Of a DNA stretch of 64,000 nt, positions 36,178 through 58,634 are shown in pieces. Within the stretch, counting starts at the first letter, position 1; every line of letters starts with the position of its first letter. Below the pieces are notes generated by a model. That model was not told where the DNA came from and did not search any database. It worked only from the letters and a program-made list of their open reading frames with translations. The stretch is from Pirellulales bacterium (GTDB lineage Bacteria; Planctomycetota; Planctomycetia; Pirellulales; Thermoguttaceae). Location: the NCBI GenBank assembly GCA_963845975.1, contig CAWJUD010000002.1, forward strand, positions 781,646 to 845,645. The letters run 5' to 3'. The translations under genes were made by a program, and so were the position numbers.

Positions 36178-36245
36178 TTCTGATGCTCCCTTTTTAAACT
36201 CCCGGCCGGCTTTTCCGAGAGAATATCAAACCAGCCCTTGGTCAA

Positions 36246-38250: not shown

Positions 38251-39405
38251 TTGCCTGCGCGGACCACTATTGACGCGGATTGGTCTCAACGAATTCAAAC
38301 GCTGCTACGGATAGATCTGGATTGGACATTTCTAATCTCGATGGCATACCGGCACAAGCTCATACCGCTCTTGTATCGGCACCTCAGTAGAATAGGCGCC
38401 GGAATTGTTCCTAAGGACATACTTGATCAACTACGAACCTATTTCCAGAAGAACGTTTGCCGCAGTCTTCTTCTCACTCGTGAACTTCTCAGACTACTCA
38501 AGCTCTTTGAAGAGCACAACATTCCCGCCGTTCCTCTTAAAGGACCGGTGCTGGCGGAAACGGTCTACGGCAATGCTTCGTTTCGGCAGTTCGTAGATCT
38601 GGACATCCTCGTCCATAGGAATGATGCCTTGACGGCCAAGAATCTACTAGCTTCACAAGGCTACCTTCCGCTGGACTCCCAGACTGACGCCGAGGCCGCC
38701 GACACTCTTGGATTGGTACCGGAGCATCACTTTTCTTGCATGCGTGACAGCCAGGTTTTCATCGAGCTTCACTGGAGGAGCGATCCGCCCTTGTTTTCCT
38801 TGTCCCTCGAGTCCGAATACTTGTGGGAACGCCTTGTGCCAATACCGTTTGCCGGCACGAAAGTGCTCGGCTTTCCCTCGACGGATCTGCTCTACATGCT
38901 CTGCGAGCACGGGGCCAGGCACTGCTGGCAACAATTGAGCTTAATCTGCGATGTGGCCGAACTCGTTCGTGATCCGCTATGTATAAATTGGAAACAGGTC
39001 TTGGAGCAAGCGAAAAAGACGGGCGGTCAGCGGATACTCTTTCTCGGCCTTTTTATGGCATGGGATCTCCTGGGAGCAGCCCTTCCGGAAAAGGTATTAC
39101 GCATGACACAGACCGACCCTATGGTAAAAGTTATTGCCAGGAAGGTGTACAAAGGATTTCTTCAGGAGAATTACGCCCCCCAGGGCCCTGTGGAAACGCT
39201 GCTTTTTTGGATCAAGGTGAGGGAACGCTTGAGTGATCAAATCCGAATGTGTATCCTTGCATTGGCCCCTGGCATATACGATCGATCCTTTGTGACATTA
39301 CCAAAGTCGTTGTCTTTCCTCTATTACTTGATCCGGCCGATCCGGTTATTTTGGCAGTATGAACTTGGCCCGTTGAGAAGTTACCTTAAGACGTTACTTT
39401 CGTAA
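38251..39405 (+). CDS. Uncharacterised-family nucleotidyltransferase (NTP_transf_5-like), RiPP-cluster associated
   Basis: 384 aa; PLKGPVLAE...FVDLDILVH nucleotidyltransferase motif; convergent with the maturase operon. Confidence 0.6.
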   Translation: MPARTTIDADWSQRIQTLLRIDLDWTFLISMAYRHKLIPLLYRHLSRIGAGIVPKDILDQLRTYFQKNVCRSLLLTRELLRLLKLFEEHNIPAVPLKGPVLAETVYGNASFRQFVDLDILVHRNDALTAKNLLASQGYLPLDSQTDAEAADTLGLVPEHHFSCMRDSQVFIELHWRSDPPLFSLSLESEYLWERLVPIPFAGTKVLGFPSTDLLYMLCEHGARHCWQQLSLICDVAELVRDPLCINWKQVLEQAKKTGGQRILFLGLFMAWDLLGAALPEKVLRMTQTDPMVKVIARKVYKGFLQENYAPQGPVETLLFWIKVRERLSDQIRMCILALAPGIYDRSFVTLPKSLSFLYYLIRPIRLFWQYELGPLRSYLKTLLS

Positions 39406-39505: not shown

Positions 39506-39997
39506 CTAGCGCTCACCGATGTCATGTCTCCATTGCTGCAGCCGCCGTAGCGCCACTCTTCCACTTCGCCATATCCGACCAGCCGGCCGGAGCAGCCATA
39601 AACTCCAAGGCGCACAGCGCATCCATATCAATATGGCAAGACGCCACGCGCCGCAATCGAAGACACGGACGCGCCCTCTGTGGTAGGAAACAATTGCCTT
39701 GCCCAAAACGTCGCGTTGGGTAAACGGTCCCTCGGAATCTCGCTGCGAGTCGCCGCGTAGAAAGAACTCGTCGCCGTCGATTTTTACGACGCGGTGTAAA
39801 ACGTAGCAATCTTCCAGATGACACACAAGGATCATGTCGCCAAACGACGGCCGAGAGCGCATTGATTCAAGTTCCACCACGTCGCCGTCGTAAATGAATG
39901 GCTCCATGCTCCTGCCGGTGACGGTCAGGCGCACGCGCTGGCCGCGCTCCAGTGCAGCGCGAATGACGGGCATCAGTTCGCGGCTGGGGACATTCAT
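39506..39997 (-). CDS. S24/S26 (LexA/signal-peptidase-like) serine peptidase, candidate leader peptidase
   Basis: TVTGRSMEPFIYDGDVV...LHRVV...VLGKAIV; paralogue of 51234-51821; start overlaps the upstream maturase stop. Confidence 0.6.
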   Translation of the reverse strand: MNVPSRELMPVIRAALERGQRVRLTVTGRSMEPFIYDGDVVELESMRSRPSFGDMILVCHLEDCYVLHRVVKIDGDEFFLRGDSQRDSEGPFTQRDVLGKAIVSYHRGRVRVFDCGAWRLAILIWMRCAPWSLWLLRPAGRIWRSGRVALRRLQQWRHDIGER

Positions 39998-42171
39998 AGC
40001 ACCGACCTCACGAGCGAAACCACCTCGGGCTCCGGGCGGCAGCGGAGGCGATAGACCGGCACACGCGCCAGAATCGCGTCGAGGTTTGCCATTGCACGCT
40101 GCATGAGCGCTCGATCCCAGTAAGGCAGAAACGCACGGGCGAGCAGCAACGGCGCAGAGGCGGAGGGGGAGAGCCGGTGGATTTCATTCTCAGGCGCTTG
40201 TTCCAGCAGGATGAGAGCGAAGAGCGGCGCACGATAATTGAGGGCTATGTTGGCGGTGCCGGCCCAAGGCGTGCCGTAGCACTCCGCACCGCTGGCTTTC
40301 GGTCGTACGGCGATCCGGTCGTCGTTCATCGCAATCACGCCGGCGAACTGACTCCACAAGCTCGCTTGTGTGCTCTTGCCCACACCGGAGTGTCCGACAA
40401 AGACTATGCCGCGCCCGTTGTCGTCAATTCCGGAGGCGTGGAAAAACAGGCCGTCCGTCAAAAGTATCTTGGTGCGCAGAATCAGATCACCTGCCCAGAA
40501 GTTAAGCAGACTCATCCAGGTTGGGCCGTCCCGCTGTTCGGTCAGTGTCAGGTCGTCCCACGCGGCGTTGGCCCGCAGCACTCCTTGCACGTTTTCGCTC
40601 TTATAACTGAATGCGGAGTAGTACGCCTGGGCCTCACGATACATCCGCCAGATGGAGCCCGGACTGTAGATCAATTCACCGTATGGGGATGGCGCTCGAG
40701 TGCTCTCTTCCCAGTCAAGCGACAGTCGCGCAATTGGATCCTCCGGCGCACCAACAAAAGAGCCAAACCACTTTTCGATTCCCATATCAGCGGCCGAAAG
40801 TGGACTATGCACCTCGATCAGAATATCGGCGATAGTAATAGGGATGTTATGCTGGCTGCTCATAATAATTCTTTGCGCCCGAGCTATTTGACACAGATAC
40901 GGTACTGGTTCGGTCAGTGTGTTTGTTTCTGTCAGCGACCATCCCGGGCAGCGCTTGCAGTAGACTCGCGCATCGCAGGAAAGACAAACGGATGCGATGC
41001 GCAACGAATCAACATATTCCTTCACTTGTTCCCATGCCACCGCGAAGCCGACCTCCAAGGGCTTGGCAGCAGGTCGCGGCAGGGATAGACAAGCATTTAT
41101 TTCTCCCGCTGGATTGATGGCAAAGTGCGCTTTACCGCATAGGCAGTGGAAATTGTAGTCACCGGCTGTGGCGTATCCCATGAGTGTGACATCGCTCCAT
41201 TCGTCGGCGGAGATACGATCAGTCGATTCAAGTTTGATACAGTCCTGTACAGACAGGCGGCATTTCTCAACCTCGGAAGGGGTGCCGTCGGGCCGCTTAC
41301 CGAGCAGCCAGTTCCCTGAAAAAGGCACACCCCAGTTGTGCGCCATCTGTCGCATCGCTTCCAGTTCGCCCACATTTTGTCGAGTGATAGTGATCTTCAA
41401 TTCTAGAGGCACGCGGCGCTTGATGAGTGATTCGATCCCGGCGCAACAGTGTGTGTAACTGCCGATCACGCCGGTAACTGCCTCGTAGGTGGCGGCTGTC
41501 GCGCCGTAAAGGGTTATAGTAGTGCAGTTGGGCGGAGCTTGGGCAAGGCGCTCTGCTACTGCCTCACTGATGAGCGTGCCATTGGTGCGGACAGCGATCA
41601 GCAACCCCAAGCGGGTGAGCGGCTCAAAGATTTCAAAAAAGTCGGGCCGCAAAAAGACCTCACCTCCAGTGAGGATCAAGAAGAGCATGCCATGACCCAC
41701 TGCTTGGTTGGCCAGAGACAACCATGCTGCCGCCGGCAGTTCCTTTGCCCGTCGCGCTACGTCATCAGCCGGATGCCGTACGGCGCACATTCGGCAAGCG
41801 AGGTTGCAGCGGGTAGTCAGCTCAAAACTGGCGCTGATAGGCTGACGGCGATCACTGGCGCGCCTGAAAAGTTCATCCGTCAGTGGACCATATTGGGTGG
41901 GAAGCGTGCTCATGCCAAAAGACCCATGCGCAAGTTCGTCCACAAAATTCCGAACATCGACGGCTGCATGTTCTACATCCACATCAAACCGCTCTGCCAT
42001 GCTGTTTGCCAGATAGTCTGCGGAACATTCTTCTGCAAGGAGGGACCAGATAAAGCACCCCGTGTTATTCAGAATCACCATGCCGTTGAGATCCATGACC
42101 CGTGATCCCAGAGGCACCAGCAGATTCTCACCGCTTATATTATGCAGCAGAAGATCATCATTGCGTTTCAT
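39994..42171 (-). CDS. Tri-domain fusion: PqqD-like RRE + radical SAM/SPASM peptide maturase + HprK-related kinase domain
   Basis: N-terminal LLVPLGSRVMDLNGMVILNNTGCFIW (PqqD-like); CNLACRMC radical SAM cluster with SPASM cysteines (CLCGKAHFAINPAGEINAC...CLSCDARVYCKRCPGW); C-terminal GIVFVGHSGVGKSTQASLW P-loop resembling the HPr kinase C-domain. Confidence 0.75.
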   Translation of the reverse strand: MKRNDDLLLHNISGENLLVPLGSRVMDLNGMVILNNTGCFIWSLLAEECSADYLANSMAERFDVDVEHAAVDVRNFVDELAHGSFGMSTLPTQYGPLTDELFRRASDRRQPISASFELTTRCNLACRMCAVRHPADDVARRAKELPAAAWLSLANQAVGHGMLFLILTGGEVFLRPDFFEIFEPLTRLGLLIAVRTNGTLISEAVAERLAQAPPNCTTITLYGATAATYEAVTGVIGSYTHCCAGIESLIKRRVPLELKITITRQNVGELEAMRQMAHNWGVPFSGNWLLGKRPDGTPSEVEKCRLSVQDCIKLESTDRISADEWSDVTLMGYATAGDYNFHCLCGKAHFAINPAGEINACLSLPRPAAKPLEVGFAVAWEQVKEYVDSLRIASVCLSCDARVYCKRCPGWSLTETNTLTEPVPYLCQIARAQRIIMSSQHNIPITIADILIEVHSPLSAADMGIEKWFGSFVGAPEDPIARLSLDWEESTRAPSPYGELIYSPGSIWRMYREAQAYYSAFSYKSENVQGVLRANAAWDDLTLTEQRDGPTWMSLLNFWAGDLILRTKILLTDGLFFHASGIDDNGRGIVFVGHSGVGKSTQASLWSQFAGVIAMNDDRIAVRPKASGAECYGTPWAGTANIALNYRAPLFALILLEQAPENEIHRLSPSASAPLLLARAFLPYWDRALMQRAMANLDAILARVPVYRLRCRPEPEVVSLVRSVL

Positions 42172-42483: not shown

Positions 42484-42627
42484 GTGGATGGGGTCAATCA
42501 GGTTGATAACTAGCAAAAAGTCTCTCTTCTATCCTGAGAGGAACAAAGGTTGCCTTGGGCGGCTCATAGGGCTGTTTGGGGCTCGGCTGCTCTTCATTTT
42601 GCTGGATGACTTCTTTTGGATCATCCG
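42484..42627 (-). CDS. 47-aa Pro/Glu-rich peptide sharing an ATGA junction with the upstream PqqD-like gene; candidate precursor
   Basis: MKNPDDPKEVIQQNEEQPSPKQPYEPPKATFVPLRIEERLFASYQPD; ATG overlaps the upstream stop (acATGAaaa); SD-like aaggga 10 nt upstream; below the 60-aa ORF-track cutoff. Confidence 0.4.
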
Positions 42628-42920
42628 GGTTTTTCATGTTTGTTTCCCTTTCAGTTGAGTTATGTGTAGACTCAGTTCGCTCGCATTGGCGAGGAGGTTG
42701 GTGAAAGCGCGGTCGACTTCCGTTACGAAGTCATCCACAGTGTGCTCCCGTACATCCTCTTCCACACGGCTATGCCCATAGGGTTGATTCCTACTACGGA
42801 GTCGCACCTGTAAGGATTAAACAAGACAGCACAATCGTCGAACTCTTCCCTCAGCACCACCAACGGATTAGCCAACGGTTTTTCAGACTTACTTGTTTGC
42901 ATAACAGAATCCTGATTCAA
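42624..42920 (-). CDS. PqqD-family peptide chaperone (RRE), with a 1-nt deletion frameshift relative to its degenerate paralogue at about 52.5 kb
   Basis: NPLVVLREEFDDCAVLFNPYRCDSVVGINPMGIAVW PqqD pattern; C-terminal part continues in the -1 frame (VDDFVTEVDRAFTNLLANASEL) up to the TGA that overlaps the next ATG. Confidence 0.55.
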
Positions 42921-43774: not shown

Positions 43775-45589
43775 ATGTCCATCAAAGAAGGTTATCGCAC
43801 AGTTCTGGGCGCATTGCACATTGGTCCCGCCCTCCGTTTAGTCTGGCAGGGATGTCCCGGTTGGACCGTGGCAAGCGTCCTGCTCCTGATCGTACAAGGG
43901 ACGCTGCCGCTTGTGGCGCTTTACGTTCTCAAATTGATCGTTGATGCGGTGGCGGGCGGCCTCCAAGGGGGTGCAGGCGAACACGGATTCGGGCAAGCAG
44001 CCTTCTTGATCGGCATCGCGGGCTTTGTCGCTATTGTCGCGGCTGCCTGCCAGTCTCTGGCGATGCTAGTAGACGAAGCCCAGACGCAAGCCGTTTCCGA
44101 CCACCTGCATCACATTCTCCACGCCAAGTCCGTGGAAATCGATCTCGAGTACTACGAGGATCCGCAGTTTCACGACACATTGCATCGAACCCAGTTCGAG
44201 GCATTTTTCCGGGCCTCGCACATCTTCAGAACGCTATTGCAGTTGGGACAAAACGGGATTTCGCTGGTGGCGATGGTCGTTCTAATCATTTTGTGTCACT
44301 GGCTGGTTGCCGCACTTTTGTTCTTGGCAGCCCTCCCCCTTGCCTTCGTTTATCTGCGGTATGCCAACAAGCTCTATCAATGGCGCCGTGATCGCACTTC
44401 CACCGAACGCCAGGCGACCTACCTACACTGGCTGCTAACCAGGAGCGAACCCGCTAAAGAACTTCGACTTTTTTCCCTGGGTAATCTGTTCATGGAACGG
44501 TTCCGGGAGCTGCGCAAACAGCTCCGCGAAGAAAAAATCCATATTGTTATGGCACGTTCGGTGACGGAGTTGGTCACCCAAATCGGCGCTGCCCTGGGTA
44601 TTATCGGGGCCTATGCGTTTGTGACGTATCGTGCCTTTCAAGGTTTTATGACACTTGGCGATCTGGTGATGTATTTTCAGGCATGCCAGCGGGCACAAGG
44701 TTTTTTCCAACAGTTGCTGAGCGGTTTCAGCAGTCTCTACGAGGACAATCTGTTTCTCGCGGACTTATGCGACTTCTTTGCCCTGAAGCGCAAGGTTCTT
44801 GAGCCTGGTCACCCGAAACCCATGCCCAAGCAAATGGAGACTGGGATCGTATTTGAGGGGGTCGGCTTCCGCTATCCAAACAGCACGAAAGTGGTGCTCA
44901 ACGACATCAATCTGACAATCCGTCCTGGAGAAATTGTGGCGCTGGTCGGCGAGAACGGGGCGGGTAAAACAACGTTGATCAAGCTTCTCTGCCGATTGTA
45001 TGATCCGACTAGCGGCAGTATTCGGCTCGATGGAATCGATCTGCGCCAGTTCCGGACTATTGATCTACGGCGCGACATCAGCGTCGTATTTCAGGACTAC
45101 ATGCAGTACTACACCACCGCGCGGGAAAACATCTGGTTTGGCAATACCGATTTGCCATGCGATCAGGAACGAATTGCAGTTGCGGCGCGGCAGGCCGGCG
45201 CCGACCGCGTGATCGCCAAGTTGCCTCGCGGCTATGACACGATCCTGGGAAAATTGTTCGACACAGGAGAAGAATTAAGCACCGGCGAATGGCAGAAGCT
45301 CGCCCTTGCGAGGGCGTTTCTCCGCGACGCCCAGATCGTCGTGCTGGATGAGCCGACAAGTGCCATGGGAGCCAGGGCCGAATTGCAGGTCTTCAATAAG
45401 TTCCGCCGGCTGATCGAAGGCCGCACGGCAATCCTGATCAGTCATCGGTTTTCGACCGTCCGGATTGCAGACCGGATCTTTGTGCTCGACGAGGGGAGAA
45501 TCATCGAATCTGGCAACCATGAAGAATTAATAGCCCGGGGGGGAACCTATGCTCGACTCTTTGAAATCCAAGCACAATCTTACAGATGA
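43775..45589 (+). CDS. ABC transporter, fused permease/ATP-binding exporter
   Basis: Six N-terminal TM helices; Walker A GENGAGKTTL, signature LSTGEWQKLALARAF, Walker B IVVLDEPTSAMG. Confidence 0.85.
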   Translation: MSIKEGYRTVLGALHIGPALRLVWQGCPGWTVASVLLLIVQGTLPLVALYVLKLIVDAVAGGLQGGAGEHGFGQAAFLIGIAGFVAIVAAACQSLAMLVDEAQTQAVSDHLHHILHAKSVEIDLEYYEDPQFHDTLHRTQFEAFFRASHIFRTLLQLGQNGISLVAMVVLIILCHWLVAALLFLAALPLAFVYLRYANKLYQWRRDRTSTERQATYLHWLLTRSEPAKELRLFSLGNLFMERFRELRKQLREEKIHIVMARSVTELVTQIGAALGIIGAYAFVTYRAFQGFMTLGDLVMYFQACQRAQGFFQQLLSGFSSLYEDNLFLADLCDFFALKRKVLEPGHPKPMPKQMETGIVFEGVGFRYPNSTKVVLNDINLTIRPGEIVALVGENGAGKTTLIKLLCRLYDPTSGSIRLDGIDLRQFRTIDLRRDISVVFQDYMQYYTTARENIWFGNTDLPCDQERIAVAARQAGADRVIAKLPRGYDTILGKLFDTGEELSTGEWQKLALARAFLRDAQIVVLDEPTSAMGARAELQVFNKFRRLIEGRTAILISHRFSTVRIADRIFVLDEGRIIESGNHEELIARGGTYARLFEIQAQSYR

Positions 45590-46219: not shown

Positions 46220-47198
46220 TCAAGCATTAATTATGGTCTTCATGAGAACATCGACGGTCTGGTCCAAAGGGCCGGGATGTAATTCGTAGCACTCGGCCTT
46301 GCGCAGGGCCGCCCCTAAGGTCGACATGGATCGATAGGCTCGGGCTGGATCGGCGATCATGTTATTGAGCGAGAGCAGCATTGCGGCGGTGATGGCCCGG
46401 GCGCGAGGCATCGGTTCTAATCTGGGCGCGTCTTCGAATCCGCCGAGGAAAAAAAAGTACCGCAGATTACATGGCGAGCCTATTTCGACATCATCAGCAT
46501 GGAGAATGTGAACTCCCAATGAATCATCATAGGCGTTTCGGATTTTGTGTAGCATCTTGTCGTCTATGCAGCCCTCGATCAACGGCAAACTTTCCGGACG
46601 AACCGAGATCGACTTGGGCAAAGGGACCATCCGGTACAACTCCTTGTGGAACACAGTGACATCGTCGGAGAAATATCGAAAGCCCTGGCCCAGTAGTCCC
46701 AGCGTCAGCGTTGTTTTGCCCCGCATTGTTGGCCCCGCCAGCGCCACGCCCTGCCCATTCCATGATAGTCCGGCAGCGTGCAGTAGTTCGTGAGACTGCA
46801 CTTTTGAGAAGCAGAATGGCGAATACTTGCGTTCGGCATAGATTGTAGAGCGATTCGATGGCAAGGATATAGATATTTGCGAGGCCTTCGGAAAAGATGG
46901 CAAGATACGGTTCGCCATCACCGCTGATAAGCATGAAGATGGGAACACTGTTGGCTCGGTTCTCCGTCTTCAGACTTCCGTAAATGGCATCGAGACATCG
47001 GATGACAACACGGTCGTTGGTCTTGACACGGACGAACACGTCCAACAACCGATAGGTTCGTTCCAACTCCTCCTGCCACTTCATGTTCTGGAGTTCCTGC
47101 ACCACCCCAGATACTATCTCCCTATCCGATAGCCTTTTGCATAGCGACATGCCGTCTAGACGCAGCATCTCAGAGACCAACTGTGGTGATTGCATCAT
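46220..47198 (-). CDS. HprK-related serine kinase (stand-alone); one frameshift near 46920
   Basis: GVALAGPTMRGKTTLTLGLLGQGFRYFSDD matches the HPr kinase C-domain P-loop (GxxGxGKS/T...ADD); ATGATG start at 47198 overlaps the last 30 nt of the B12-rSAM gene. Confidence 0.65.
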
Positions 47199-48552
47199 TG
47201 TTCTCCAACAGAAGATTCCACTTCGCCAAGAAATTCGAGTCTTCGAAACGCCAGTAGGGGGCAAAAACCTTGGGATGATCTTTGATCAATTGCAGCATCT
47301 CCGCGCTTCCATTGTTCAGGGCCATCATCGATCCGTCGCCGCGGCATACGAAGCGGACCTTTGCCGCCGCCTCGTCGAAGAGAATGCTGTCTTTGTACTC
47401 CGCGTACAGCGGCGAATTCGGCATCGGCATCAGGTGGTTGAACGCGAGTATCATCGAGCACTTGCCCTCCGCCGCCTGGGAAATGTAAAAGACAAGGAAC
47501 ATGGTCTCCTTGAATTCGATTAACGTTTCGAAGGGAAATCCCCACATCAGGAAAAGTTTGATGGTTTTGAAATGCGACATCGATTGAACGATGGTGTGGG
47601 TGGCCTCCTTGATGCTGAATCCCTTGTGAAGTATCTTCAGGACCGAATCAGACCCGGACTCCAGCCCGTAGCCGATTGCAGTGCAACCCGTTGCAGTCAT
47701 GCACCTTAGCAGCTCCTCGTCCATTAGATCCACGCGTCCCAAGCAGCTCCACTCGCTGCCGGGGGCCGCCCGTTGCAGTCCTTCGCAGAATTGTTGCACT
47801 CGCTGTTTTGATAGCACGAATGTATCGTCATGGATACTGAACTCTTTCTTCCCAAACTCGTGGTACAACAAATGAACTTCCCGGAGGACGTTATCCATGT
47901 CTCGATAACGAGCCCGGCGCCCCCAGTATGTGGATATATCGCAGAACGTACAATTGTGCGGGCAACCCCGGGTTGTTAGAATGCTCGCCCTTTCATATTT
48001 TTCGAGATCCAGAAGTTGATAGGCGGGAAAGGGCCGATGGTCGAGGTCGGAGATCAATTCCCGCGCCGGCGCGGTCCACGCGGAACCATCTTCCTTTCGC
48101 ACTATCACCCCCTTGACGCGACCGCATTCTCCCGGCGCGGACTCCAGGTAATGCATCAGTTCAACAATCGTGTCGTCAGCCTCTCCGCGAACAACCACGT
48201 CGATCCAGGGAAAAGATTCGATGATCGCCTCCGCGACGCCGGACGGTCCCGCCCCGCCGAGCACGAAAACCTTGTGCGGATCGAGCTGCTTCACCTTTTT
48301 CGTAGCGAGGATGACCACCGGCAGCATGTCGTACATGCACCCGATCCCGACTACGTCCGCACAACCGGAGAGAAACGAGACAAACGTATCGACGTCAAAG
48401 GGATTCTCGTATGGGTAGGTCTGGTAGTCCTTGAAGTCCACCTTATAACCGCTTTGTACAAGCGAGGTCGCTATGTGCAAGGGCCCCAAAGGAATGAAGT
48501 GTTTTTTCGGATCAATACGGTCATACGCGGCAACGATTGATATATCGCTCAT
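47170..48552 (-). CDS. B12-binding-domain radical SAM enzyme
   Basis: N-terminal cobalamin-binding Rossmann region followed by TTRGCPHNCTFCD CxxxCxxC. Confidence 0.8.
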   Translation of the reverse strand: MSDISIVAAYDRIDPKKHFIPLGPLHIATSLVQSGYKVDFKDYQTYPYENPFDVDTFVSFLSGCADVVGIGCMYDMLPVVILATKKVKQLDPHKVFVLGGAGPSGVAEAIIESFPWIDVVVRGEADDTIVELMHYLESAPGECGRVKGVIVRKEDGSAWTAPARELISDLDHRPFPAYQLLDLEKYERASILTTRGCPHNCTFCDISTYWGRRARYRDMDNVLREVHLLYHEFGKKEFSIHDDTFVLSKQRVQQFCEGLQRAAPGSEWSCLGRVDLMDEELLRCMTATGCTAIGYGLESGSDSVLKILHKGFSIKEATHTIVQSMSHFKTIKLFLMWGFPFETLIEFKETMFLVFYISQAAEGKCSMILAFNHLMPMPNSPLYAEYKDSILFDEAAAKVRFVCRGDGSMMALNNGSAEMLQLIKDHPKVFAPYWRFEDSNFLAKWNLLLENNDAITTVGL

Positions 48553-48572
48553 AGTTGCACTTGGGATAAATT

Positions 48573-48857
48573 CTAGGAATCGCCTGCGCTGCAACGCCCG
48601 ATCAGTTGCTTGGCCTCTAGCTGCCGGATCAGATCTTCAACGTCCGTTGAAATCGCAACCGCGTCCCCCTGATAGGACGAACAGAGCCCGTTCACGATTT
48701 CGGCGACTGTCCTTTTCCCGTCCAGAAGTCTCCATATACTTGCCGCGATTCGATTAAGCACGGATACTTTGCGGCCCTGGGAATCATACAAAATGACCTC
48801 GTCCTCAAGGTCCTGGCAAGCCACATTAGCATTGTGTTGGTAAATGCCATCGAGCAT
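48573..48857 (-). CDS. PqqD-family peptide chaperone (RRE)
   Basis: VILYDSQGRKVSVLNRIAASIWRLLDGKRTVAEIV...DVEDLIRQLEAKQLI. Confidence 0.7.
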   Translation of the reverse strand: MLDGIYQHNANVACQDLEDEVILYDSQGRKVSVLNRIAASIWRLLDGKRTVAEIVNGLCSSYQGDAVAISTDVEDLIRQLEAKQLIGRCSAGDS

Positions 48858-48921: not shown

Positions 48922-49980
48922 TCAGTATAAAAAAGGTACGGCATGTTCCCGAAATCCCCGGGATTTCCGCGAACGCGCAACGATCTCTTCCCGAAGGTGA
49001 TTGATCATCACCGTGGCCGCACATGCAAGCTCTCGACGCCTGGTTTCCGATCCAAGGCGATCGCACAGAGATTGCAAAACCTCCGGGCGAGAGAGCATGG
49101 CCATGCACAGTTCGCATTTAGTGACGCAATTGGTCGGTTTCTCCAGGATCACGCCGCTTCCCTCGAGTTCTTGTAACAAGCCGGCAGGGCCGCCGAGTCG
49201 AAGAATGTTCAGCAGAGGCGACCTGTCTGCCTTGTGCAATATCTCCACTAAGGAAGAACGCTTGGCGTTTCCCAGGATCAAAGGGCTGTCCGGGGTAAAA
49301 GCCAGATAAGGCCCGCAACAAGCGACCACCGTGCCGTCGGGGAGCACGTTTGGCACGAAGGAAACGAAGCAGCCGGAATTCGGGGCATGTGTAGACGTTA
49401 TCATCTCGGATCGCGGAATGGACTTGGCGCGGCCGAATGGAACCACCGGCTGATCGCCGAGGGGAACGCGCTCCTCGGATAAGACGCTGTGGATCTGTTC
49501 CGCCACCGGATCGTCGCGAAGCACCGAAAGATTGACTATAACGTGAATGTCGTTCTTCTTGCAGGCCCTCACGGCGTTCAGAACATTTTCCATCGGCACA
49601 AACTGCACATGAAATTGATCGGTGCTGATGGCAATCATTTTGACGCCACGTTGCTTCAGCATGGCCGTGGTATCTATAGCTTCGCCGAGAGTCCGCGCCC
49701 AATAGGTGTCGGTCTGAACGACCGGTCGCAGGCCGCAATCTCGCGACATTTCCACCAGGTGCAGTACGTCGTCGGGAAACAGCATGGGTTCGCCGCCGGT
49801 GATCCATAACACGCGAAACCCTGCCTTTGCAGCCTCCTCCACGGTCTTTTCTGCCAGAGGCATTGGCATGACTTCAGAACGTTCCGGACCACATTCGAAG
49901 ACGCAATGTCCACATCGAGCATTGCACTTAGACGTATATACCAAACAAAGAATCGCAGGTAATCTTTCTGCAGTCTTCAC
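48922..49980 (-). CDS. Radical SAM/SPASM-domain peptide maturase
   Basis: YTSKCNARCGHC CxxxCxxC; C-terminal SPASM cysteines (CCGPY...CVTKCELCMAM); GTG start. Confidence 0.8.
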   Translation of the reverse strand: MKTAERLPAILCLVYTSKCNARCGHCVFECGPERSEVMPMPLAEKTVEEAAKAGFRVLWITGGEPMLFPDDVLHLVEMSRDCGLRPVVQTDTYWARTLGEAIDTTAMLKQRGVKMIAISTDQFHVQFVPMENVLNAVRACKKNDIHVIVNLSVLRDDPVAEQIHSVLSEERVPLGDQPVVPFGRAKSIPRSEMITSTHAPNSGCFVSFVPNVLPDGTVVACCGPYLAFTPDSPLILGNAKRSSLVEILHKADRSPLLNILRLGGPAGLLQELEGSGVILEKPTNCVTKCELCMAMLSRPEVLQSLCDRLGSETRRRELACAATVMINHLREEIVARSRKSRGFREHAVPFLY

Positions 49981-50218
49981 AAGTACTTTACTTTCCCGGC
50001 GATGCCTTAGTCATAAACCAAGAGTCGTCTAATACATAGTAACATTCATTCCGTCTCTTCACCAAGCAGAGACGATAAAATGTATATATCCACCGCCAAA
50101 CGTATACTTTGCAGCGTTTGATTGTATGCATCCACGTCTTAAAACACGTTCACATGCTGCTTTGACTATGCAACCCACTTATTGGCGCCGCATCGACAAT
50201 ACTTTATCGGCCTGTGCA

Positions 50219-50374
50219 CTAGCTGGTGTAAGTAATTGGTCCAGGGAGGGTGAATATTTGATTTTCAGGGTCAAATTTCGCCGCCACCTTTACCTTCCCC
50301 AGGACTTCATTCTCATCGTACTCCGTGATTTGAGGCTTTTCCCATATCTGCATGTCTATCTTTTCCATATTCAT
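50219..50374 (-). CDS. Precursor peptide A (51 aa)
   Basis: MNMEKIDMQIWEKPQITEYDENEVLGKVKVAAKFDPENQIFTLPGPITYTS; leader shared with copies B and C, divergent core, ITYTS tail; the 87-aa track ORF is an over-extension. Confidence 0.6.
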   Translation of the reverse strand: MNMEKIDMQIWEKPQITEYDENEVLGKVKVAAKFDPENQIFTLPGPITYTS

Positions 50375-50388
50375 AAACCCATACCTTT

Positions 50389-50535
50389 CTACTTCACAAT
50401 CTGTGCCGTCATAAGCACTGGCATGACCTCCGAACGCTCCGGAACACATTCCCAAATGCAATGTCCACATCGAGCATTGCACTTAGACGTGTATACCAAA
50501 CAAAGAAGCGCTGGTAATCTTTCTACAGTCCTCAC
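50389..50535 (-). pseudogene. Duplicated 5' fragment (48 codons then stop) of the radical SAM/SPASM gene
   Basis: VRTVERLPALLCLVYTSKCNARCGHCIWEC... is about 85% nt-identical to 49840-49980, including the upstream region. Confidence 0.6.
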
Positions 50536-50827
50536 AAGTAATTTACTTTCCCGGCGATGTCTTAGTCATAAACCAAAAATCGCCGAATATATAGTAATGC
50601 TCAATCCACCTCTTCACCAAGTACCAACAACATAGTGCATACAAACCCACCACTAAGTGGAGGCTTCATATGCACCATTGGATTGCATGCATCCACCGCA
50701 CAAGGCAGGCTCAATTGTATCTTTCACTACATACTACCCACTTATTGGCAGCGCATTGACATAACTTTATCGATCTGTCGTAAAGCGGCTACTTTTTCCG
50801 GGCGAAGTTTGGGATAAAGCGTAGGCA

Positions 50828-50974
50828 CTAGCTAGTATAATTAATTGCAAAGGAAAGTGTGTATAAATTTTCAGCATCAAATTTCGCCGCCACCCTTACC
50901 TTCCCCAGGACTTCATTCTCATCGTATTCCGTGATCTGTGGCTTTTCCCAAATCTACATGTCGGTCATGTTCAT
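50828..50974 (-). pseudogene. Precursor peptide B, interrupted by in-frame amber (TAG) at codon 7
   Basis: MNMTDM*IWEKPQITEYDENEVLGKVRVAAKFDAENLYTLSFAINYTS; CAG to TAG relative to A and C. Confidence 0.5.
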
Positions 50975-51087
50975 AAATCATCTAAACCTTTCTTAAAGCG
51001 GCTATTGACAGCATATCGACTAAACTTTATCGATCTGTCGTAAAGCGGCTACTTTTTCCGGGCGCAGTTTCGGATAAAGCGTAGGCA

Positions 51088-51237
51088 CTAGCTAGTATAA
51101 GTAATTGAGCCGGCAACTGTCCAAGTTTGACCTTCAGGGTCAAATTGCGCCGCCACCTTTACCTTCCCCAGGACTTCATTCTCATCGTACTCCGTGATCT
51201 GGGGCTTTTCCCAAATCTGCATGTCGGTCGTGTTCAT
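51088..51237 (-). CDS. Precursor peptide C (49 aa)
   Basis: MNTTDMQIWEKPQITEYDENEVLGKVKVAAQFDPEGQTWTVAGSITYTS; ATG overlaps the TGA of the upstream peptidase gene (ATGA). Confidence 0.6.
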   Translation of the reverse strand: MNTTDMQIWEKPQITEYDENEVLGKVKVAAQFDPEGQTWTVAGSITYTS

Positions 51238-51821
51238 AAATCACCTAAACCTTTCTTAAAGTGCCGGAAGGCAGAAACGAAAGTCAGAACCTTTAAACAA
51301 AATTGAAGCACGCCAATGGATACCACACGTAAGCATCGAAATATCGTTCTCGTGATGAGGTTGTGATTGTTAGGCCAGATCCATTCCTTGACGCTCCTTG
51401 CCAGCCGGTAAAAATACCACATTACATATCCATATAGTCCTAAAAACCGATTCACTATTGTCCAGTGCAAGGTCTCGTAATGATGCCGCGATGCGGTATT
51501 CTGCACAACGATCACTTTTCCTAGCACTGCCCCTATATCGAGTTTTCTATACACAAAGGAATTGTCGCCCTTCTCCAGAAGACGATCTCCTTGCCGCCCG
51601 ACAAATCGATGGACGACCAGATGTCCATGTTCCTCGAATACAAGTATGTCTCCGATCGTCAACTTATCGGCTTGTAACGATCTTACGATCAGATTGTCGC
51701 CGGGACGAATAATAGGCGACATGCTTGTACCCATCGATTCGAATGTTGCCTCACCATGGTGGCGAAGGCGCATCTGCGCCACAAGTACTGCCAAGTCTTG
51801 TTCCTTACGATCTCCCGCCAT
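51234..51821 (-). CDS. S24/S26-like serine peptidase, paralogue of 39506-39997; candidate leader peptidase
   Basis: ESMGTSMSPIIRPGDNLIV...GDILVF...HLVVHRFV...VLGKVIVV; stop overlaps precursor C start. Confidence 0.6.
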   Translation of the reverse strand: MAGDRKEQDLAVLVAQMRLRHHGEATFESMGTSMSPIIRPGDNLIVRSLQADKLTIGDILVFEEHGHLVVHRFVGRQGDRLLEKGDNSFVYRKLDIGAVLGKVIVVQNTASRHHYETLHWTIVNRFLGLYGYVMWYFYRLARSVKEWIWPNNHNLITRTIFRCLRVVSIGVLQFCLKVLTFVSAFRHFKKGLGDL

Positions 51822-52335: not shown

Positions 52336-52363
52336 ATTATACTATGCTAGCAAGTCTTGTCAA
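52336..52363 (-). promoter_or_regulatory. Near-consensus sigma70-type promoter (TTGACA-16 nt-TATAAT) reading toward the peptidase/precursor operon
   Basis: On the - strand: TTGACAagacttgctagcatagTATAAT in an AT-rich region about 500 nt upstream of 51821. Confidence 0.4.
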
Positions 52364-52419
52364 TCATTCGGACCGCCAAGTCAAGAAAAATTTTAGGGGG
52401 GGTGCTTTGATTTCAGCCA

Positions 52420-52692
52420 CCGACAGCCGCGTTTGGCGGAGATATCGGCGGAGGCGCGCTCGGCTACCGTTACGAAGTCATCCATGCTGTACTTACCGTA
52501 CACAAGCTACCACACTGCTATTCCAATAGGGTTGATCCCCACTGCGTCGCTCGAGTCGGGATTGAACAAAGGCTCCTCCCTCAGTACCACCAAGGGATTA
52601 GCCGCTGGTTTTTCGGATTTCCTCGTTTTCATAGAAATGCAGACTATATTTTCCATTAATCCCCCGACGCCGCCAATTGACCGCCTCCACAT
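52420..52692 (-). pseudogene. Degenerate second copy of the PqqD-like gene (premature TAG and internal deletion)
   Basis: MKTRKSEKPAANPLVVLREEPLFNPDSSDAVGINPIGIAVW* aligns with 42624-42920 at nt level, including flanks. Confidence 0.5.
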
Positions 52693-53661: not shown

Positions 53662-53748
53662 GGATGGGTGGCCGAGTGGTCTAAGGCGGCAGTCTTGAAA
53701 ACTGCTGTGGGCGTGAGTCCACCGGGGGTTCGAATCCCTCCCCATCCG
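53662..53748 (+). tRNA. tRNA-Ser (anticodon UGA)
   Basis: Acceptor GGATGGG/CCCATCC, anticodon stem GCAGT/ACTGC with loop CTTGAAA (U33-UGA-A37), long variable arm, T arm GGGGG-TTCGAAT-CCCTC, discriminator G. Confidence 0.85.
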
Positions 53749-55051
53749 TTTTTGAGAAACATGAAGCAAGATTGTATTCTTTCGTATCTTTTCGTAAGTC
53801 TTTATTAGGGTTCGTTTTTGCCGCGTTTTTCTCGACCTGATAAGAATCACCCTTAACCGCCTCTAACGATCTATTACTGTGGATTACGTGCGCCGCGCTC
53901 GTAGGATTTTGCGTTACTTGCTGTGGCGTAACTGCCGCCCGAAAATGATCGTCTACAGTACGCGCATAGTGAGCTAAGGCAATTTTTGGTGAGTGTCCAA
54001 GCCACTTAGCAACAGTCTGAATAGGAAAGCGTTCAAGCAAATCTGTTTCACTACTGGCCCTCAACCCGTGGAAAGGTTTTGGCCACGGTCGCAAACCCGC
54101 ACGTCGAATGATCTTTTCAAAGCTTGTTCGCAAGTTACTATTTCGCCACCCGGCTTTAGAATCCGCTTGGGAACGGTGCTTACTAATAACGTATATCGCG
54201 CCGTCTTTCGCCATATCGAAAGCCTCTTGCAGCGGTCCAACTAATTCTGGAAACAGCGGAATAACGCGCTGGCCACCATTGGGATAGTGCTCTGTCTTAG
54301 GGCTGATAACAGTAATCCGTTGCCTGTTCCAGTCAATATGTTCCCACTTAAGCGATAACACTTCACTCGGGCAACGTAGCCCACCAAAACGAGACAAGGT
54401 CACGATCACCCGCCATTCGGTATCAGGGCAGGCGTCTAACACACTCTCTATATCCGCCTTTGAAACGTAGACGTTCCGGCTTTCATCTACAACGGCGGCT
54501 ACTTGTACATCATTAAATGGATTCTCTTGAATTACCCCGCGCCGAACCATTGCATTGAAAAACATTTTAGCCGCCTGTAGACGCTTGCGGACAGTGTAAA
54601 GGGCTAACCCTTGACCGATCAATGCCTGTTTATAATCTTCGGTCTGAGTACGGGTAATTTGTTGGACAAGTCGATCCGCTCCAAAATACTCAATTAGGCT
54701 GCGTTCACCTTGTTTCCACACAGTCTTACTGGCAGGCTTTACATCTTGCCGCTTGTCGATGTAGTCGGCAATGAAGGCCCCTAGTGTCACTAGTTCCCGT
54801 TTAGGCACTAAACCAACGGCCGCAAGTTTAGTGTGTAATGCATCTGTGATTTTACGCAACCAAGCAGCGGTATCACTGTCGATGTTATCGCCCGACTCGG
54901 CCGCGATTAAAAGACGTTCGATATATCCCTTAACTGTTTGGGCTTGTCTGAGGGGCAACCGTTTCCCTAGATAAATCGTCACTCGTTTCCCGTTTGGGGC
55001 TGTAAATTGGATTCGCTTACCGCCACTTTTGTCTAGGTTTAATGAAGACAT
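53681..55051 (-). CDS. Tyrosine-type site-specific integrase; 3' end of ORF runs into tRNA-Ser antisense
   Basis: C-terminal catalytic region FHGLRASSET...LGHSPKIALAHYAR (R, H..R, H, Y); last about 25 codons (KTDGEGFEPP...) translate the tRNA T-arm antisense. Confidence 0.85.
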   Translation of the reverse strand: MSSLNLDKSGGKRIQFTAPNGKRVTIYLGKRLPLRQAQTVKGYIERLLIAAESGDNIDSDTAAWLRKITDALHTKLAAVGLVPKRELVTLGAFIADYIDKRQDVKPASKTVWKQGERSLIEYFGADRLVQQITRTQTEDYKQALIGQGLALYTVRKRLQAAKMFFNAMVRRGVIQENPFNDVQVAAVVDESRNVYVSKADIESVLDACPDTEWRVIVTLSRFGGLRCPSEVLSLKWEHIDWNRQRITVISPKTEHYPNGGQRVIPLFPELVGPLQEAFDMAKDGAIYVISKHRSQADSKAGWRNSNLRTSFEKIIRRAGLRPWPKPFHGLRASSETDLLERFPIQTVAKWLGHSPKIALAHYARTVDDHFRAAVTPQQVTQNPTSAAHVIHSNRSLEAVKGDSYQVEKNAAKTNPNKDLRKDTKEYNLASCFSKTDGEGFEPPVDSRPQQFSRLPP

Positions 55052-56310: not shown

Positions 56311-58634
56311 TCATGCCTGTATCGCTTCATAAATAACTTGTATTTTCCCTGAAATTGGAATAGAGCTAATCTTTATTCTCCCTTGATCCTCAAGTGCCCT
56401 AGCAAATTCATCTAAGGTTTTTACAGGAGCTTTCATCTTCAGGGAAACTTGCCGTCTAGTTGCCTTACCGCCAAGAGCTACAATAATACGATAGAATTTC
56501 TTGCAACCTTCTTGAAAGGCATTATCGGCCCCATATTCCGCCGTAAGAACCAGGGATCGCTTTGCCTGCCACACAGCTACACCTTGACCCCACTCCACGG
56601 CCGACCGGTCGATTCTTGGGTTCAGGTGGTTCTCAGACACCGCGTACAGCGTCGCTAGCTTTAACATCTGCTCATTTACCCTAGACCAGATCGCCGCTGC
56701 CCCGGCGTCGCTAGCCTGCTCTGCCAGCACATATTCCCGATCCGCTGCCTCTTGACAGGCTTCTATCATTTTCCATGCGGCCGGCGTTGCGGGAACCGTA
56801 AACTGAGTTGAACAATTTGCTATCCACAAGTCTCCGGCATCAGGCGGGCGATATTTGATCCAATACCTAACTTCCTCAATTAACCGTGTCGGCAATTCCT
56901 TAGCCCCTAAAGTTCGCCCTTTACCACGCGAATCGGCTTCGATAGCCAATGTACGGGCACAGAATCCGTTTTGCAGTAGCCGATTACCTACGGCCTTATA
57001 GTAATGTTGTGGAATCGCTGATCCGTGCAACACAACATGCGGTTTATGAATGAGCATTGGCTGAGAGCTATCATAGTTATTCTGTTCGGCCTTTACTCTG
57101 CGTGAAAAAGTTATGCCCGATGCAGTATATAATTCGTTTAACAAGGCGGCGATTGCCTGATAACGGGCATCCTTCCCTTTTTCCATAGCCTCAATCATTG
57201 CGTCAAATTCATCCGTTTGAAAAAGCACTACAGGATTAAGCGGGCTACGGAAAAGTCTATCCTCTATGCCTTCCGATGATGCCATTCGCTCTGACAATAA
57301 ATCCCCAGCATCGGCCGCTATTAGTAATTGACTATTAAGGTTTCTTGTAAAGTTCTTGCCGGTTCCAGAGAACGCCAAAGAAACTATATATAAATTAGTC
57401 CCAAGCCCCGTCGGTCCTTGAATCTTTCTTCCCGTGATTGTGGAAAGTAAGGCTAATGCTCCAGCAAGTGCAAGAGGTTTATTTGGATATGGTGCCGCCT
57501 CCATGCAATGTGAAACATACTCGTTAATAAAACCCGGCACGCTTCGTAGATTAGATGGTAGATAAAGGGATTTTGCCGGTCGCATAATTTCCGAGTCTGC
57601 CGTGTCGCTTGTGGTTATCTCTTGCGGTTTAGAAAGTGCCTTTTCGATCAATCCTTTTACGTCGATGCCACTGGTATCTATAGGTGCATAACTGTTATCT
57701 AATAATAACCAGCCGGCCGGCTTCTGTGGACTAAGTTTGCGTGCTTCACTAATTTTTCGTCTAAAATCCTTTTCATCCTTTGAATTGCTCAAGTCCCACG
57801 GCGGAACACAGCGGGAATTGTATTCACGTACCAGCAAGTCATAAGTTTGACTATCGGAGAGTTGAAACCCATGTACAAGGGCCACAGCAGCCCAAAGCAG
57901 TTTGTCATGCCCGCCCTGCCCCTGGATTGCAGGATCGCATTGAGCAAGGTAAAGATTGGCGCGTTGTAAAATATCATTGCCCGCAGGCGAAGACATATTG
58001 ATTGGCGCTTGGGTGGGGTTAGTTTCCCACGGCACACGTCTATTAGATTGAGGTTGCGATATTGGTAAAGAGATCGGGGATGTAGATTGCTTTATGGTTT
58101 CTGAAAAGTATATAGGCTGCAACCATCCAAGGTTGCAAGATTTTATGATGCCTAATCCAGGTAGGGCTTGTCCAGTGATGCAAAAGAATCGGCCATGATC
58201 GTAGATTTCAATACCGGCCTCTTTCTTGCCTTCACCACCGTATTGCGGAAACTTTTTGTTTTTCCCGGTATCAAAAGGTGACTTACCGCGAACGAAAATT
58301 TTAACGCCAGTCCCGCTGGGTGATATTTCAGAGTAGGAATCGAGTTTGTTAATTATCTCTTGCGCCAATCGGAAACCCCATCTCTTGCATGACGGCAACC
58401 ATCCAAATCAATACCGCAAAAAGGATCGTCTTTAGAGAAGACATAGCCAATACCGTCGAAGCCGCCATGATTGTAGGCTGCTAAAACTTTATCGAAGCTA
58501 GTCCAGGTAGATGGATCATTCGACTTTGCCTCGATGCCGCTGACTTGATAAGGAATTTTACCCGATTTATAAAGTACCCATTGGCTGCGTTCCTTTAATT
58601 CGGCAGGGATATTTTTTATATCAACTTTGCCCAT
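56311..58634 (-). CDS. Bifunctional primase-polymerase (Prim-Pol) fused to D5/P4-type helicase; one frameshift near 58370
   Basis: N-terminal GFDGIGYVF...GIDLDGC and SGTGVKIF Prim-Pol motifs; C-terminal SLAFSGTGKN Walker A; ORFs 58353-58634 and 56311-58398 join. Confidence 0.7.

Follow-up and report, generated by a model that had tools for sequence, protein, structure and literature searches.

Which enzyme frees a modified peptide from its leader? Leader removal is often the unknown step in the pathways of RiPPs (peptides made on ribosomes and modified after translation), and the question arises twice in a stretch of 64,000 nucleotides from a Pirellulales bacterium (contig CAWJUD010000002.1), the whole of which is called the window below. 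Two genes for small peptidases, pep1 and pep2, stand there among RiPP precursor and maturation genes. An earlier note on this DNA saw possible leader peptidases in them and placed both in one cluster; the window holds instead two adjacent cassettes of related architecture and unrelated precursors, with one peptidase each. We propose that pep1 and pep2 are probably SipW/Sec11-type serine peptidases, homologous to the leader peptidase LppS, that were recruited as dedicated RiPP leader peptidases, and our confidence in this function is higher for pep2 than for pep1.

pep1, 51234..51821, minus strand: SpI-like (endoplasmic reticulum/archaeal-type, S26-like) peptidase of 195 aa, with Ser33, His71, Asp86 (GDN box) and Arg92
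pep2, 39506..39997, minus strand: SpI-like peptidase of 163 aa, with Ser30, His68, Asp83 and Glu89

Fold and catalytic residues of the two peptidases

The LexA/signal-peptidase fold previously attributed to both proteins is confirmed. Their matches to Pfam Peptidase_S24 (25.6 bits for pep1, 28.7 bits for pep2) exceed the gathering score of 23.3, and both AlphaFold models (pLDDT 91.7 and 85.7, respectively) display the S24/S26 beta-core. The two proteins are distantly homologous to one another (30% identity over 100 aa, E=8e-7). In each model a helix precedes the catalytic serine (residues 2-22 in pep1, 5-17 in pep2). C-terminal helices, two in pep1 and a single long one in pep2, are specific to the family and carry a near-invariant tryptophan (W120) in an alignment of 56 sequences comprising pep1, pep2 and their relatives. 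The Foldseek matches of the pep1 model were led by SipA and included LexA, SpsB and SEC11.

In the same alignment M34, P36, G57, H71, R72 and D86 are invariant and S33 is kept in at least 90% of the sequences; within the pep2 family, S30, M31, P33, H68, R69 and D83 are invariant. Among 170 aligned relatives, the serine column holds Ser in 162 sequences and the histidine column holds His in all 170. The position occupied by Lys in bacterial signal peptidase I and LexA is here a His followed by an Arg, as in SipW, Sec11 and the archaeal enzymes. The Ser-Lys dyad of S24 enzymes of the LexA/UmuD type, which the earlier note had proposed to look for, is rejected for both proteins, since its Lys position is the invariant His; the alignments show a Ser-His pair as in SipW, Sec11 and LppS (S33/H71 in pep1, S30/H68 in pep2). 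Absence of the dyad had been put forward as a refutation, but this test was mis-specified: a missing Lys does not refute catalysis.

Could pep1 and pep2 be self-cleaving regulators of the LexA/UmuD kind (S24) that control the cluster? The Pfam best match, Peptidase_S24, and the LexA C-terminal domains among the top fold matches would point in this direction. We reject this explanation as hardly credible: beyond the replacement of the catalytic Lys, the models show no DNA-binding domain or cleavable N-terminal arm, but only one short helix of about 15-20 residues ahead of the catalytic core. When compared with solved structures, the family profile reached 7.5e-13 for SEC11C, 8e-12 for SEC11A, 3e-5 for bacterial signal peptidase I and 1.5e-3 for LexA, thus scoring SEC11 some nine orders of magnitude better than LexA.

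The resemblance to SEC11 raises another possibility, that pep1 and pep2 work as SipW-type signal peptidases on Sec-exported proteins, in the ordinary secretory way, and merely adjoin RiPP genes. With SipW (NCBIfam NF046067), Sec11 and archaeal signal peptidase I they share Ser and His in SMxP and HR motifs as well as the GDN box; the best curated models for both are those of signal peptidase I, led by the archaeal-type TIGR02228, and some relatives are annotated as 'signal peptidase' by JGI. This explanation is nevertheless rejected as very improbable. Unlike SipW and Sec11, pep1 and pep2 show no N-terminal hydrophobic anchor by Kyte-Doolittle hydropathy, a simple measure and no dedicated predictor of topology; the only transmembrane-like candidate is the last pep1 helix (residues 163-185, 1.93), the maximum in pep2 being 1.11. 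Both proteins score under the curated signal peptidase cutoffs and carry the family-specific C-terminal helices. The leaders of the adjoining precursors are acidic and hydrophilic, with no hydrophobic core, and the predicted substrates are not Sec signal peptides. Moreover, the peptidase is encoded inside a RiPP cassette in 35 of 35 related loci.

SodX, the S26 maturation protease of nickel superoxide dismutase, provides a partial parallel as a small, non-secretory enzyme that trims a short N-terminal propeptide off a single dedicated substrate. The matches to its model TIGR02754 are weak (2.2e-6 and 28 bits for pep2, 3.8e-4 and 21 bits for pep1) and far below the cutoff of 63, and both context and substrate differ. 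No NCBIfam model covers the RiPP-cassette peptidase.

Homology to the leader peptidase LppS

LppS is a leader peptidase of the linear polyphosphorylated peptide (LPP) clusters, studied in Paenibacillus alginolyticus, and depends on a RiPP recognition element (RRE) (Popov et al., Nat Commun 2026; PMC13381572). Deletion of lppS abolishes processing, LppS cleaves only when the RRE is present, and its S29A, H68A and D93A mutants are inactive (PMC13381572). The N-terminal helix alpha-1 of the enzyme touches the RRE-leader sheet, and the cut falls at the leader-core junction, after F-3 E-2 T-1, in a leader with Tyr at -16 and Pro at -13 (PMC13381572). The authors presented such peptidases as new to RiPP pathways and LPP as restricted to Bacillota, with no mention of radical S-adenosylmethionine (SAM) enzymes (PMC13381572).

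The LppS sequence (WP_029196374.1, from Supplementary Data 1 of PMC13381572) aligned with our family profile in hhalign with a probability of 99.3% (E=5e-20) over 111 columns that include the N-terminal helix, and BLASTP linked it to pep1 (3e-10) and pep2 (9e-9). All these small homologous peptidases share an N-terminal helix, after which Ser stands in a GTSMxP motif and His in an HR motif. The leader-peptidase idea of the earlier note is thereby backed by homology to an experimentally proven enzyme, together with a gene order kept across phyla. The accompanying remark that such a role is unusual for the fold was correct up to May 2026; a published precedent now exists in LppS. Keyword searches of the literature on SynChlorMet, ScmC, PF14907/PF00717 and S24/S26 leader peptidases returned nothing relevant.

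The likeness extends to the surrounding genes. The RiPP accessory set of the window consists of an SpI-like peptidase, an RRE, an HprK-like kinase, a nucleotidyltransferase (NTP transferase) and an exporter resembling MsbA; in LPP clusters, as in the window and the related loci, the last four are co-located with the peptidase, and the precursor leader carries a [Y/W]xxPx-hydrophobic motif. On other aspects, the cassettes differ from LPP clusters. Radical SAM/SPASM maturases, together with a B12-radical SAM enzyme, are present in them and absent from LPP clusters; the host is planctomycete-like with relatives in many phyla, whereas LPP were described as Bacillota-only; the precursors lack the YxxPxVLxHQxIxFETxxS motif and Ser3 and have a C-terminal Ser instead; and the position of LppS Asp93 is Arg in pep1 and Glu in pep2. 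Membership in the LPP family is rejected, as only the [W/Y]xxPx-hydrophobic part of the motif is common, no Ser stands at +3 and radical-SAM maturases are present.

Conservation of gene order

Coordinates and sequence confirm the two gene overlaps on which the earlier note was built. The stop codon of pep1 (TGA, 51236..51234) overlaps the start codon of precursor C (ATG, 51237..51235), and the minus strand reads GGT GAT TTA TGA / ATG AAC ACG at this point, a true ATGA junction. The ATG of pep2 (39997..39995) overlaps by 4 nt the TGA (39996..39994) of the 725-aa open reading frame 39994..42171, which encodes the fusion maturase of cassette 2. Each peptidase gene is indeed coupled to maturation or precursor genes. 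The 4-nt ATGA is the commonest gene overlap in bacterial operons, and alone shows operon membership only. Of 35 non-redundant related loci, however, 18 have ahead of the peptidase an in-frame (A/G)TG start that overlaps the upstream stop by the same 4 nt, and the adjacency of peptidase and precursor is seen again in L006, the sole relative of the pep1 cassette. Where pep1 starts is ambiguous, as the copy in the database (P0001) begins nine codons downstream; the ATG at 51821 is favoured because homologues and LppS have about 29-33 residues ahead of the catalytic Ser.

Seventy-five relatives of pep2 were found. Across 35 genome loci the pep2-type order comprises one or more small precursors, PqqD, a radical SAM/SPASM enzyme, usually ScmC, and the peptidase, often followed by ATP-binding cassette (ABC) transporter and NTP_transf_5 genes. 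The hosts include Pirellulales, Chloroflexota, Syntrophobacter, Chlorobium, Competibacter, Armatimonadota and Peptococcaceae, among others.

With pep1, a word-indexed homologue search found only pep1 itself, and an exhaustive HMMER search yielded 2675 relatives at E<=1e-3. The nearest of them, P0077, shares 40% identity and keeps the equivalents of Ser33, His71 and Asp86. Its locus, L006, is cassette 1 gene for gene, and intact: the peptidase is followed by an overlapping 53-aa precursor, a YydG-like radical SAM enzyme, PqqD, a B12 radical SAM enzyme, a kinase, an ABC transporter and NTP_transf_5. The L006 precursor is homologous to precursor C, with the common leader PWEQPQIEEYDEDEVLGKVKVAAQF. 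More distant pep1-like proteins adjoin PqqD, radical SAM, ScmC and NTP_transf_5 genes. Natural fusions join relatives of the peptidase to NTP_transf_5 (P0100, P0109, P0159), to a GNAT acetyltransferase (P0154, P0223) or to a C25 peptidase (P0106).

Precursor leaders and predicted cleavage sites

Four precursor genes accompany the two peptidases.

precursor C, 51088..51237, minus strand: 49 aa, MNTTDMQIWEKPQITEYDENEVLGKVKVAAQFDPEGQTWTVAGSITYTS, with WEKPQI (WxxPxI); ATG overlapping the pep1 stop; P0227
precursor B copy, 50828..50974, minus strand: in-frame TAG at 50956..50954, which is CAG in copies A and C
precursor A, 50219..50374, minus strand: 51 aa, MNMEKIDMQIWEKPQITEYDENEVLGKVKVAAKFDPENQIFTLPGPITYTS; P0226
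precursor D, 42494..42637, minus strand: 47 aa, leader QPYEPPKATFVPLRIEERL (YxxPxA); no Cys-containing core

Cassette 1 has its precursor gene in triplicate, the copies lying in tandem (window 50216-51238, repeat families D1, D3 and D4), and a duplicate of about 25 nt of the 3' end of pep1 sits ahead of precursor B. In precursors A-C the [W/Y]xxPx-hydrophobic leader motif reads WEKPQI; precursor D has YEPPKA.

Where would the leaders be cut? By analogy with the spacing of LppA (W at -16), a plausible predicted site in cassette 1 is EVLG/KVKVAA (the slash marks the cut), with V at -3 and G at -1; an alternative prediction, VAA/QF, fits the rule of small residues at -1 and -3 (A-x-A). The LppA spacing also gives a plausible site in L046 (ETVA/GVC). 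The same spacing fails in the cassette-2 precursors, where it leads to an implausible EER/LL, and it is therefore not a general rule; L-L-x/C is an alternative predicted site for this cassette. The A-x-A rule likewise revealed no conserved small-x-small site at the leader-core boundary of the cassette-2 precursors. A Ser at +3 is absent from both candidate sites.

With such sites in view, pep1 and pep2 might cut elsewhere, removing part of the leader and leaving a host protease to finish, trimming a C-terminal follower or processing another protein of the cluster. The cleavage site cannot be read from the sequences, the conservation of the cassette-1 precursors passes both candidate sites and the LppA spacing breaks down in cassette 2, all of which would allow this reading. 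We consider it rather improbable, given that the LppS cut falls exactly at the leader-core junction (PMC13381572) and that the precursors finish in short conserved tails, TYTS or a C-terminal Ser, in which no follower is obvious.

The C-terminal Ser is frequent. It is found in precursors A-C and in those of L001, L005, L010, L016, L017, L021, L027-L029, L038 and L046. In the lasso peptides paeninodin and pseudomycoidin, a C-terminal Ser is phosphorylated by an HprK-type kinase, and PsmN, an uncharacterised nucleotidyltransferase, adds hexose (PMC6993621). By analogy, the same chemistry may apply to the precursors described here.

Proposed mechanism

For pep1 and pep2 we propose the following scheme, in which we infer the RRE dependence, the order of the steps, the location and the cleavage sites. 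The PqqD-type RRE would bind the [W/Y]xxPx-hydrophobic motif of the leader. Modification of the core would follow, by the radical-SAM enzymes and probably also by the HprK-like kinase and NTP_transf_5, these two probably acting on the C-terminal Ser. The RRE-leader complex would dock on the N-terminal helix of the peptidase, and Ser33/His71 of pep1 or Ser30/His68 of pep2 would cut the leader-core junction, each peptidase serving its own cassette. As neither protein has an N-terminal membrane anchor, both are most likely cytoplasmic, or membrane-associated via their C-terminal helices. Leader removal would thus take place in the cytoplasm or at the membrane, ahead of export of the product by the MsbA-like ABC transporter.

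Lasso peptide B1/B2 systems, those of paeninodin and pseudomycoidin with their HprK kinase and PsmN transferase included, follow a comparable logic: a leader with the [Y/W]xxP motif is offered by a discrete RRE to a leader peptidase of its own, and a C-terminal Ser is the target of an accessory HprK-like kinase and nucleotidyltransferase (PMC6993621). The protease is there a transglutaminase-like Cys protease, of another fold and catalytic class than the Ser-His S26-like peptidase considered here. The cassettes of the window have no macrolactam synthetase, and their radical-SAM enzymes are likely the primary modifiers.

Gene content of the two cassettes

Cassette 1 spans about 52692-46220 on the minus strand, in the order RRE-like gene, pep1, precursors C, B and A, YydG-like radical SAM enzyme, PqqD RRE, B12 radical SAM enzyme and HprK-like kinase. 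Besides pep1 and the precursors, it comprises the following features.

ScmD/PqqD-like RRE gene upstream of pep1, 52393..52692, minus strand: in-frame TAG at 52509..52507
truncated duplicate of the YydG-like radical SAM N-terminus, 50389..50535, minus strand: 48 aa, repeat family D2, between precursors B and A
YydG-like radical SAM/SPASM maturase, 48922..49980, minus strand: TIGR04078 match (E=1e-31) under the cutoff; 53% identity with its L006 homologue
discrete PqqD-type RRE, 48573..48857, minus strand: the leader-binding Asn and Asp of LppB are retained
B12-binding radical SAM enzyme, ApyD-like, 47170..48594, minus strand: family model matches
HprK-like kinase, 46220..47195, minus strand: in two frames, split near 46812 compared with the intact 319-aa homologue of L006

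The residues retained by the discrete PqqD RRE are the Asn that is invariant across the aligned RREs (N33 of LppB) and an Asp at the position of LppB D70. The enzyme ApyD beta-methylates the penultimate Tyr of its substrate (PMC10635010). A conserved T-Y-T motif lies beside the C-terminus of precursors A-C and is a possible methylation site for the ApyD-like enzyme.

A perfect sigma-70 consensus (TTGACA, 16 nt, TATAAT; 12/12) is found on the minus strand at 52336-52363, between the interrupted RRE-like gene and pep1; it lies some 515 nt upstream of the latter, the second hexamer ending at 52336 and the pep1 ATG lying at 51821. The total of promoter-like sites in the region was not above chance.

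Cassette 2 spans 42920-39506 on the minus strand and consists of an RRE-like gene, precursor D, a PqqD/radical SAM-SPASM/ScmC fusion and pep2. An exporter gene lies between the two cassettes and a nucleotidyltransferase gene at the edge.

MsbA-like ABC exporter, 43775..45589, plus strand: no C39 peptidase domain; between the two cassettes
ScmD/PqqD-like RRE gene upstream of precursor D, 42634..42920, minus strand: apparent 1-nt loss in the G-run 42749..42747
fusion maturase, 39994..42171, minus strand: 725 aa, PqqD RRE, radical SAM/SPASM and ScmC/HprK-like P-loop domain
NTP_transf_5 (PF14907) nucleotidyltransferase, 38251..39405, plus strand: at the cassette edge

Once repaired, the RRE-like gene 42634..42920 ends in a TGA that overlaps the start codon of precursor D, a further junction of the ATGA type. 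The ABC and NTP_transf_5 genes, one of each, presumably serve both cassettes. No other protease gene was identified in the RiPP stretch among the larger open reading frames, the only ones scanned against families.

The PqqD, radical SAM/SPASM and ScmC-like parts of cassette 2 recall the SynChlorMet cassette (ScmC/D/E/F), whose models are among the best matches, and relatives occur in Syntrophobacter and Chlorobium. Equivalog status is rejected on the scores, which remain far from the respective cutoffs: 84 bits for ScmE and 86 for ScmF against 400, 23 for ScmC against 125, and 50 for the ScmD-like fragment against 100. By its sequence, cassette 2 is related to the SynChlorMet cassette without being an equivalog, and it differs from it by the fusion of three parts into one protein of 725 aa.

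Possible impairment or decay

Several observations weigh against a leader-peptidase function for pep1 and pep2 in this genome. Regarding the enzymes, the TIGR02228 scores (35.7 bits for pep1, 30.0 for pep2) lie under the cutoff of 51.85, which LppS passes with 62.8. At the position of LppS Asp93, a residue whose replacement in D93A inactivates LppS, pep1 has Arg92, its nearest acid being Asp95, and its closest relatives also lack the acid. An acid (D or E) stands in this column in 126 of the 170 aligned sequences (Glu89 in pep2), so that about a quarter of them are devoid of it. Regarding the substrates, the LppA spacing gives an implausible site in cassette 2, and cleavage by either peptidase is a prediction. 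Precursor D keeps the conserved leader but ends after ...FASYQPD and has neither the two-Cys core nor the C-terminal Ser that its relatives possess, and cassette 2 may for this reason have no functional substrate in this genome.

To these observations are added the interrupted genes: the frameshifted RRE-like gene of cassette 2, the TAG at 52509..52507 in its cassette-1 counterpart (AAG in the cassette-2 copy), the in-frame TAG of precursor B, and the kinase split near 46812, which is a genuine frameshift or else an indel of the assembly. Decay of parts of the system, or errors in the assembly, may lie behind them. The indels could be assembly errors, because the related locus L001, from a metagenome-assembled genome, is similarly fragmented; the two TAG substitutions are less easily explained in this way. 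Finally, the pep1-type cassette is known from one other lineage only. A scan of genome contigs for the cassette-1 precursor found nothing, a scan of metagenome contigs for the cassette-1 radical SAM enzyme found one short contig, and a search with the precursor profile recovered only the three known peptides. The comparative support for pep1 is thin, as cassette 1 has a single known relative lineage.

Taken together, could these facts mean that pep1 is catalytically impaired, a non-enzymatic scaffold comparable to SipA of streptococcal pili, or the non-functional gene of a decaying cassette? The Arg92 in place of an Asp essential in LppS, SipA as the top Foldseek match, the in-frame TAGs and frameshift in neighbouring genes and the great rarity of cassette 1 all speak for it. 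We hold it to be unlikely. Ser33, His71 and the Asp86 of the GDN box are retained in pep1, and also in P0077, which belongs to an intact cassette; the quarter of the aligned family that lacks the Asp93-equivalent acid still keeps Ser and His; and the reading frame of pep1 is intact and its model confident.

Significance and wider reading

With pep1 and pep2 viewed as dedicated leader peptidases, signal-peptidase-like enzymes of this kind are already known from RiPP pathways, having been first reported in 2026 in one Bacillota family only. What is new is that the SpI-like peptidase, the kinase, the transferase and the exporter are combined with radical-SAM maturases; this is seen in a planctomycete-like genome and, as regards cassette 2, in many phyla. 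The window and its relatives indicate that an LppS-type enzyme is a core part of radical-SAM RiPP cassettes in many phyla, including those of the SynChlorMet type. They provide a concrete candidate protease for the heterologous production of these peptides, and a handle for genome mining in the form of a small SMxP...HR...GD peptidase beside a PqqD gene. They also predict products modified on the C-terminal Ser.

Going further, we tentatively suggest, with some doubt, that the SpI-like peptidase, the HprK-like kinase, NTP_transf_5 and the MsbA-like exporter constitute a portable 'finishing and export' module placed on varied primary modifiers. If so, these modifiers would be none in LPP, the lasso cyclase in paeninodin-type systems, radical SAM/SPASM enzymes in SynChlorMet-type systems, and an epimerase-like and B12 radical SAM pair in cassette 1. 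If true, uncharacterised SCM-type cassettes in at least ten phyla would make radical-SAM-modified peptides whose conserved C-terminal Ser is phosphorylated or glycosylated and which a signal-peptidase-like enzyme releases. That would contradict the published view of a system confined to Bacillota.

Flanking region

Upstream of cassette 1, a tRNA-Ser gene (tga, 53662-53748) abuts a phage-type integrase gene (53681-55051), and a DUF3987 protein is encoded at 56311-58398. This region is probably an integrated element, lying across the tRNA gene from the RiPP cassettes.

On the other side of the cassettes, the window encodes at 33367-37709 a GT2-TPR membrane protein and an FAD amine-oxidase-like protein. 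The flanks of the related loci L001 and L002 contain Wzy, Wzz, Poly_export and glycosyltransferase genes. LPP clusters were reported to be embedded in polysaccharide loci (PMC13381572), and the flanks of the window and of its relatives agree with this description.

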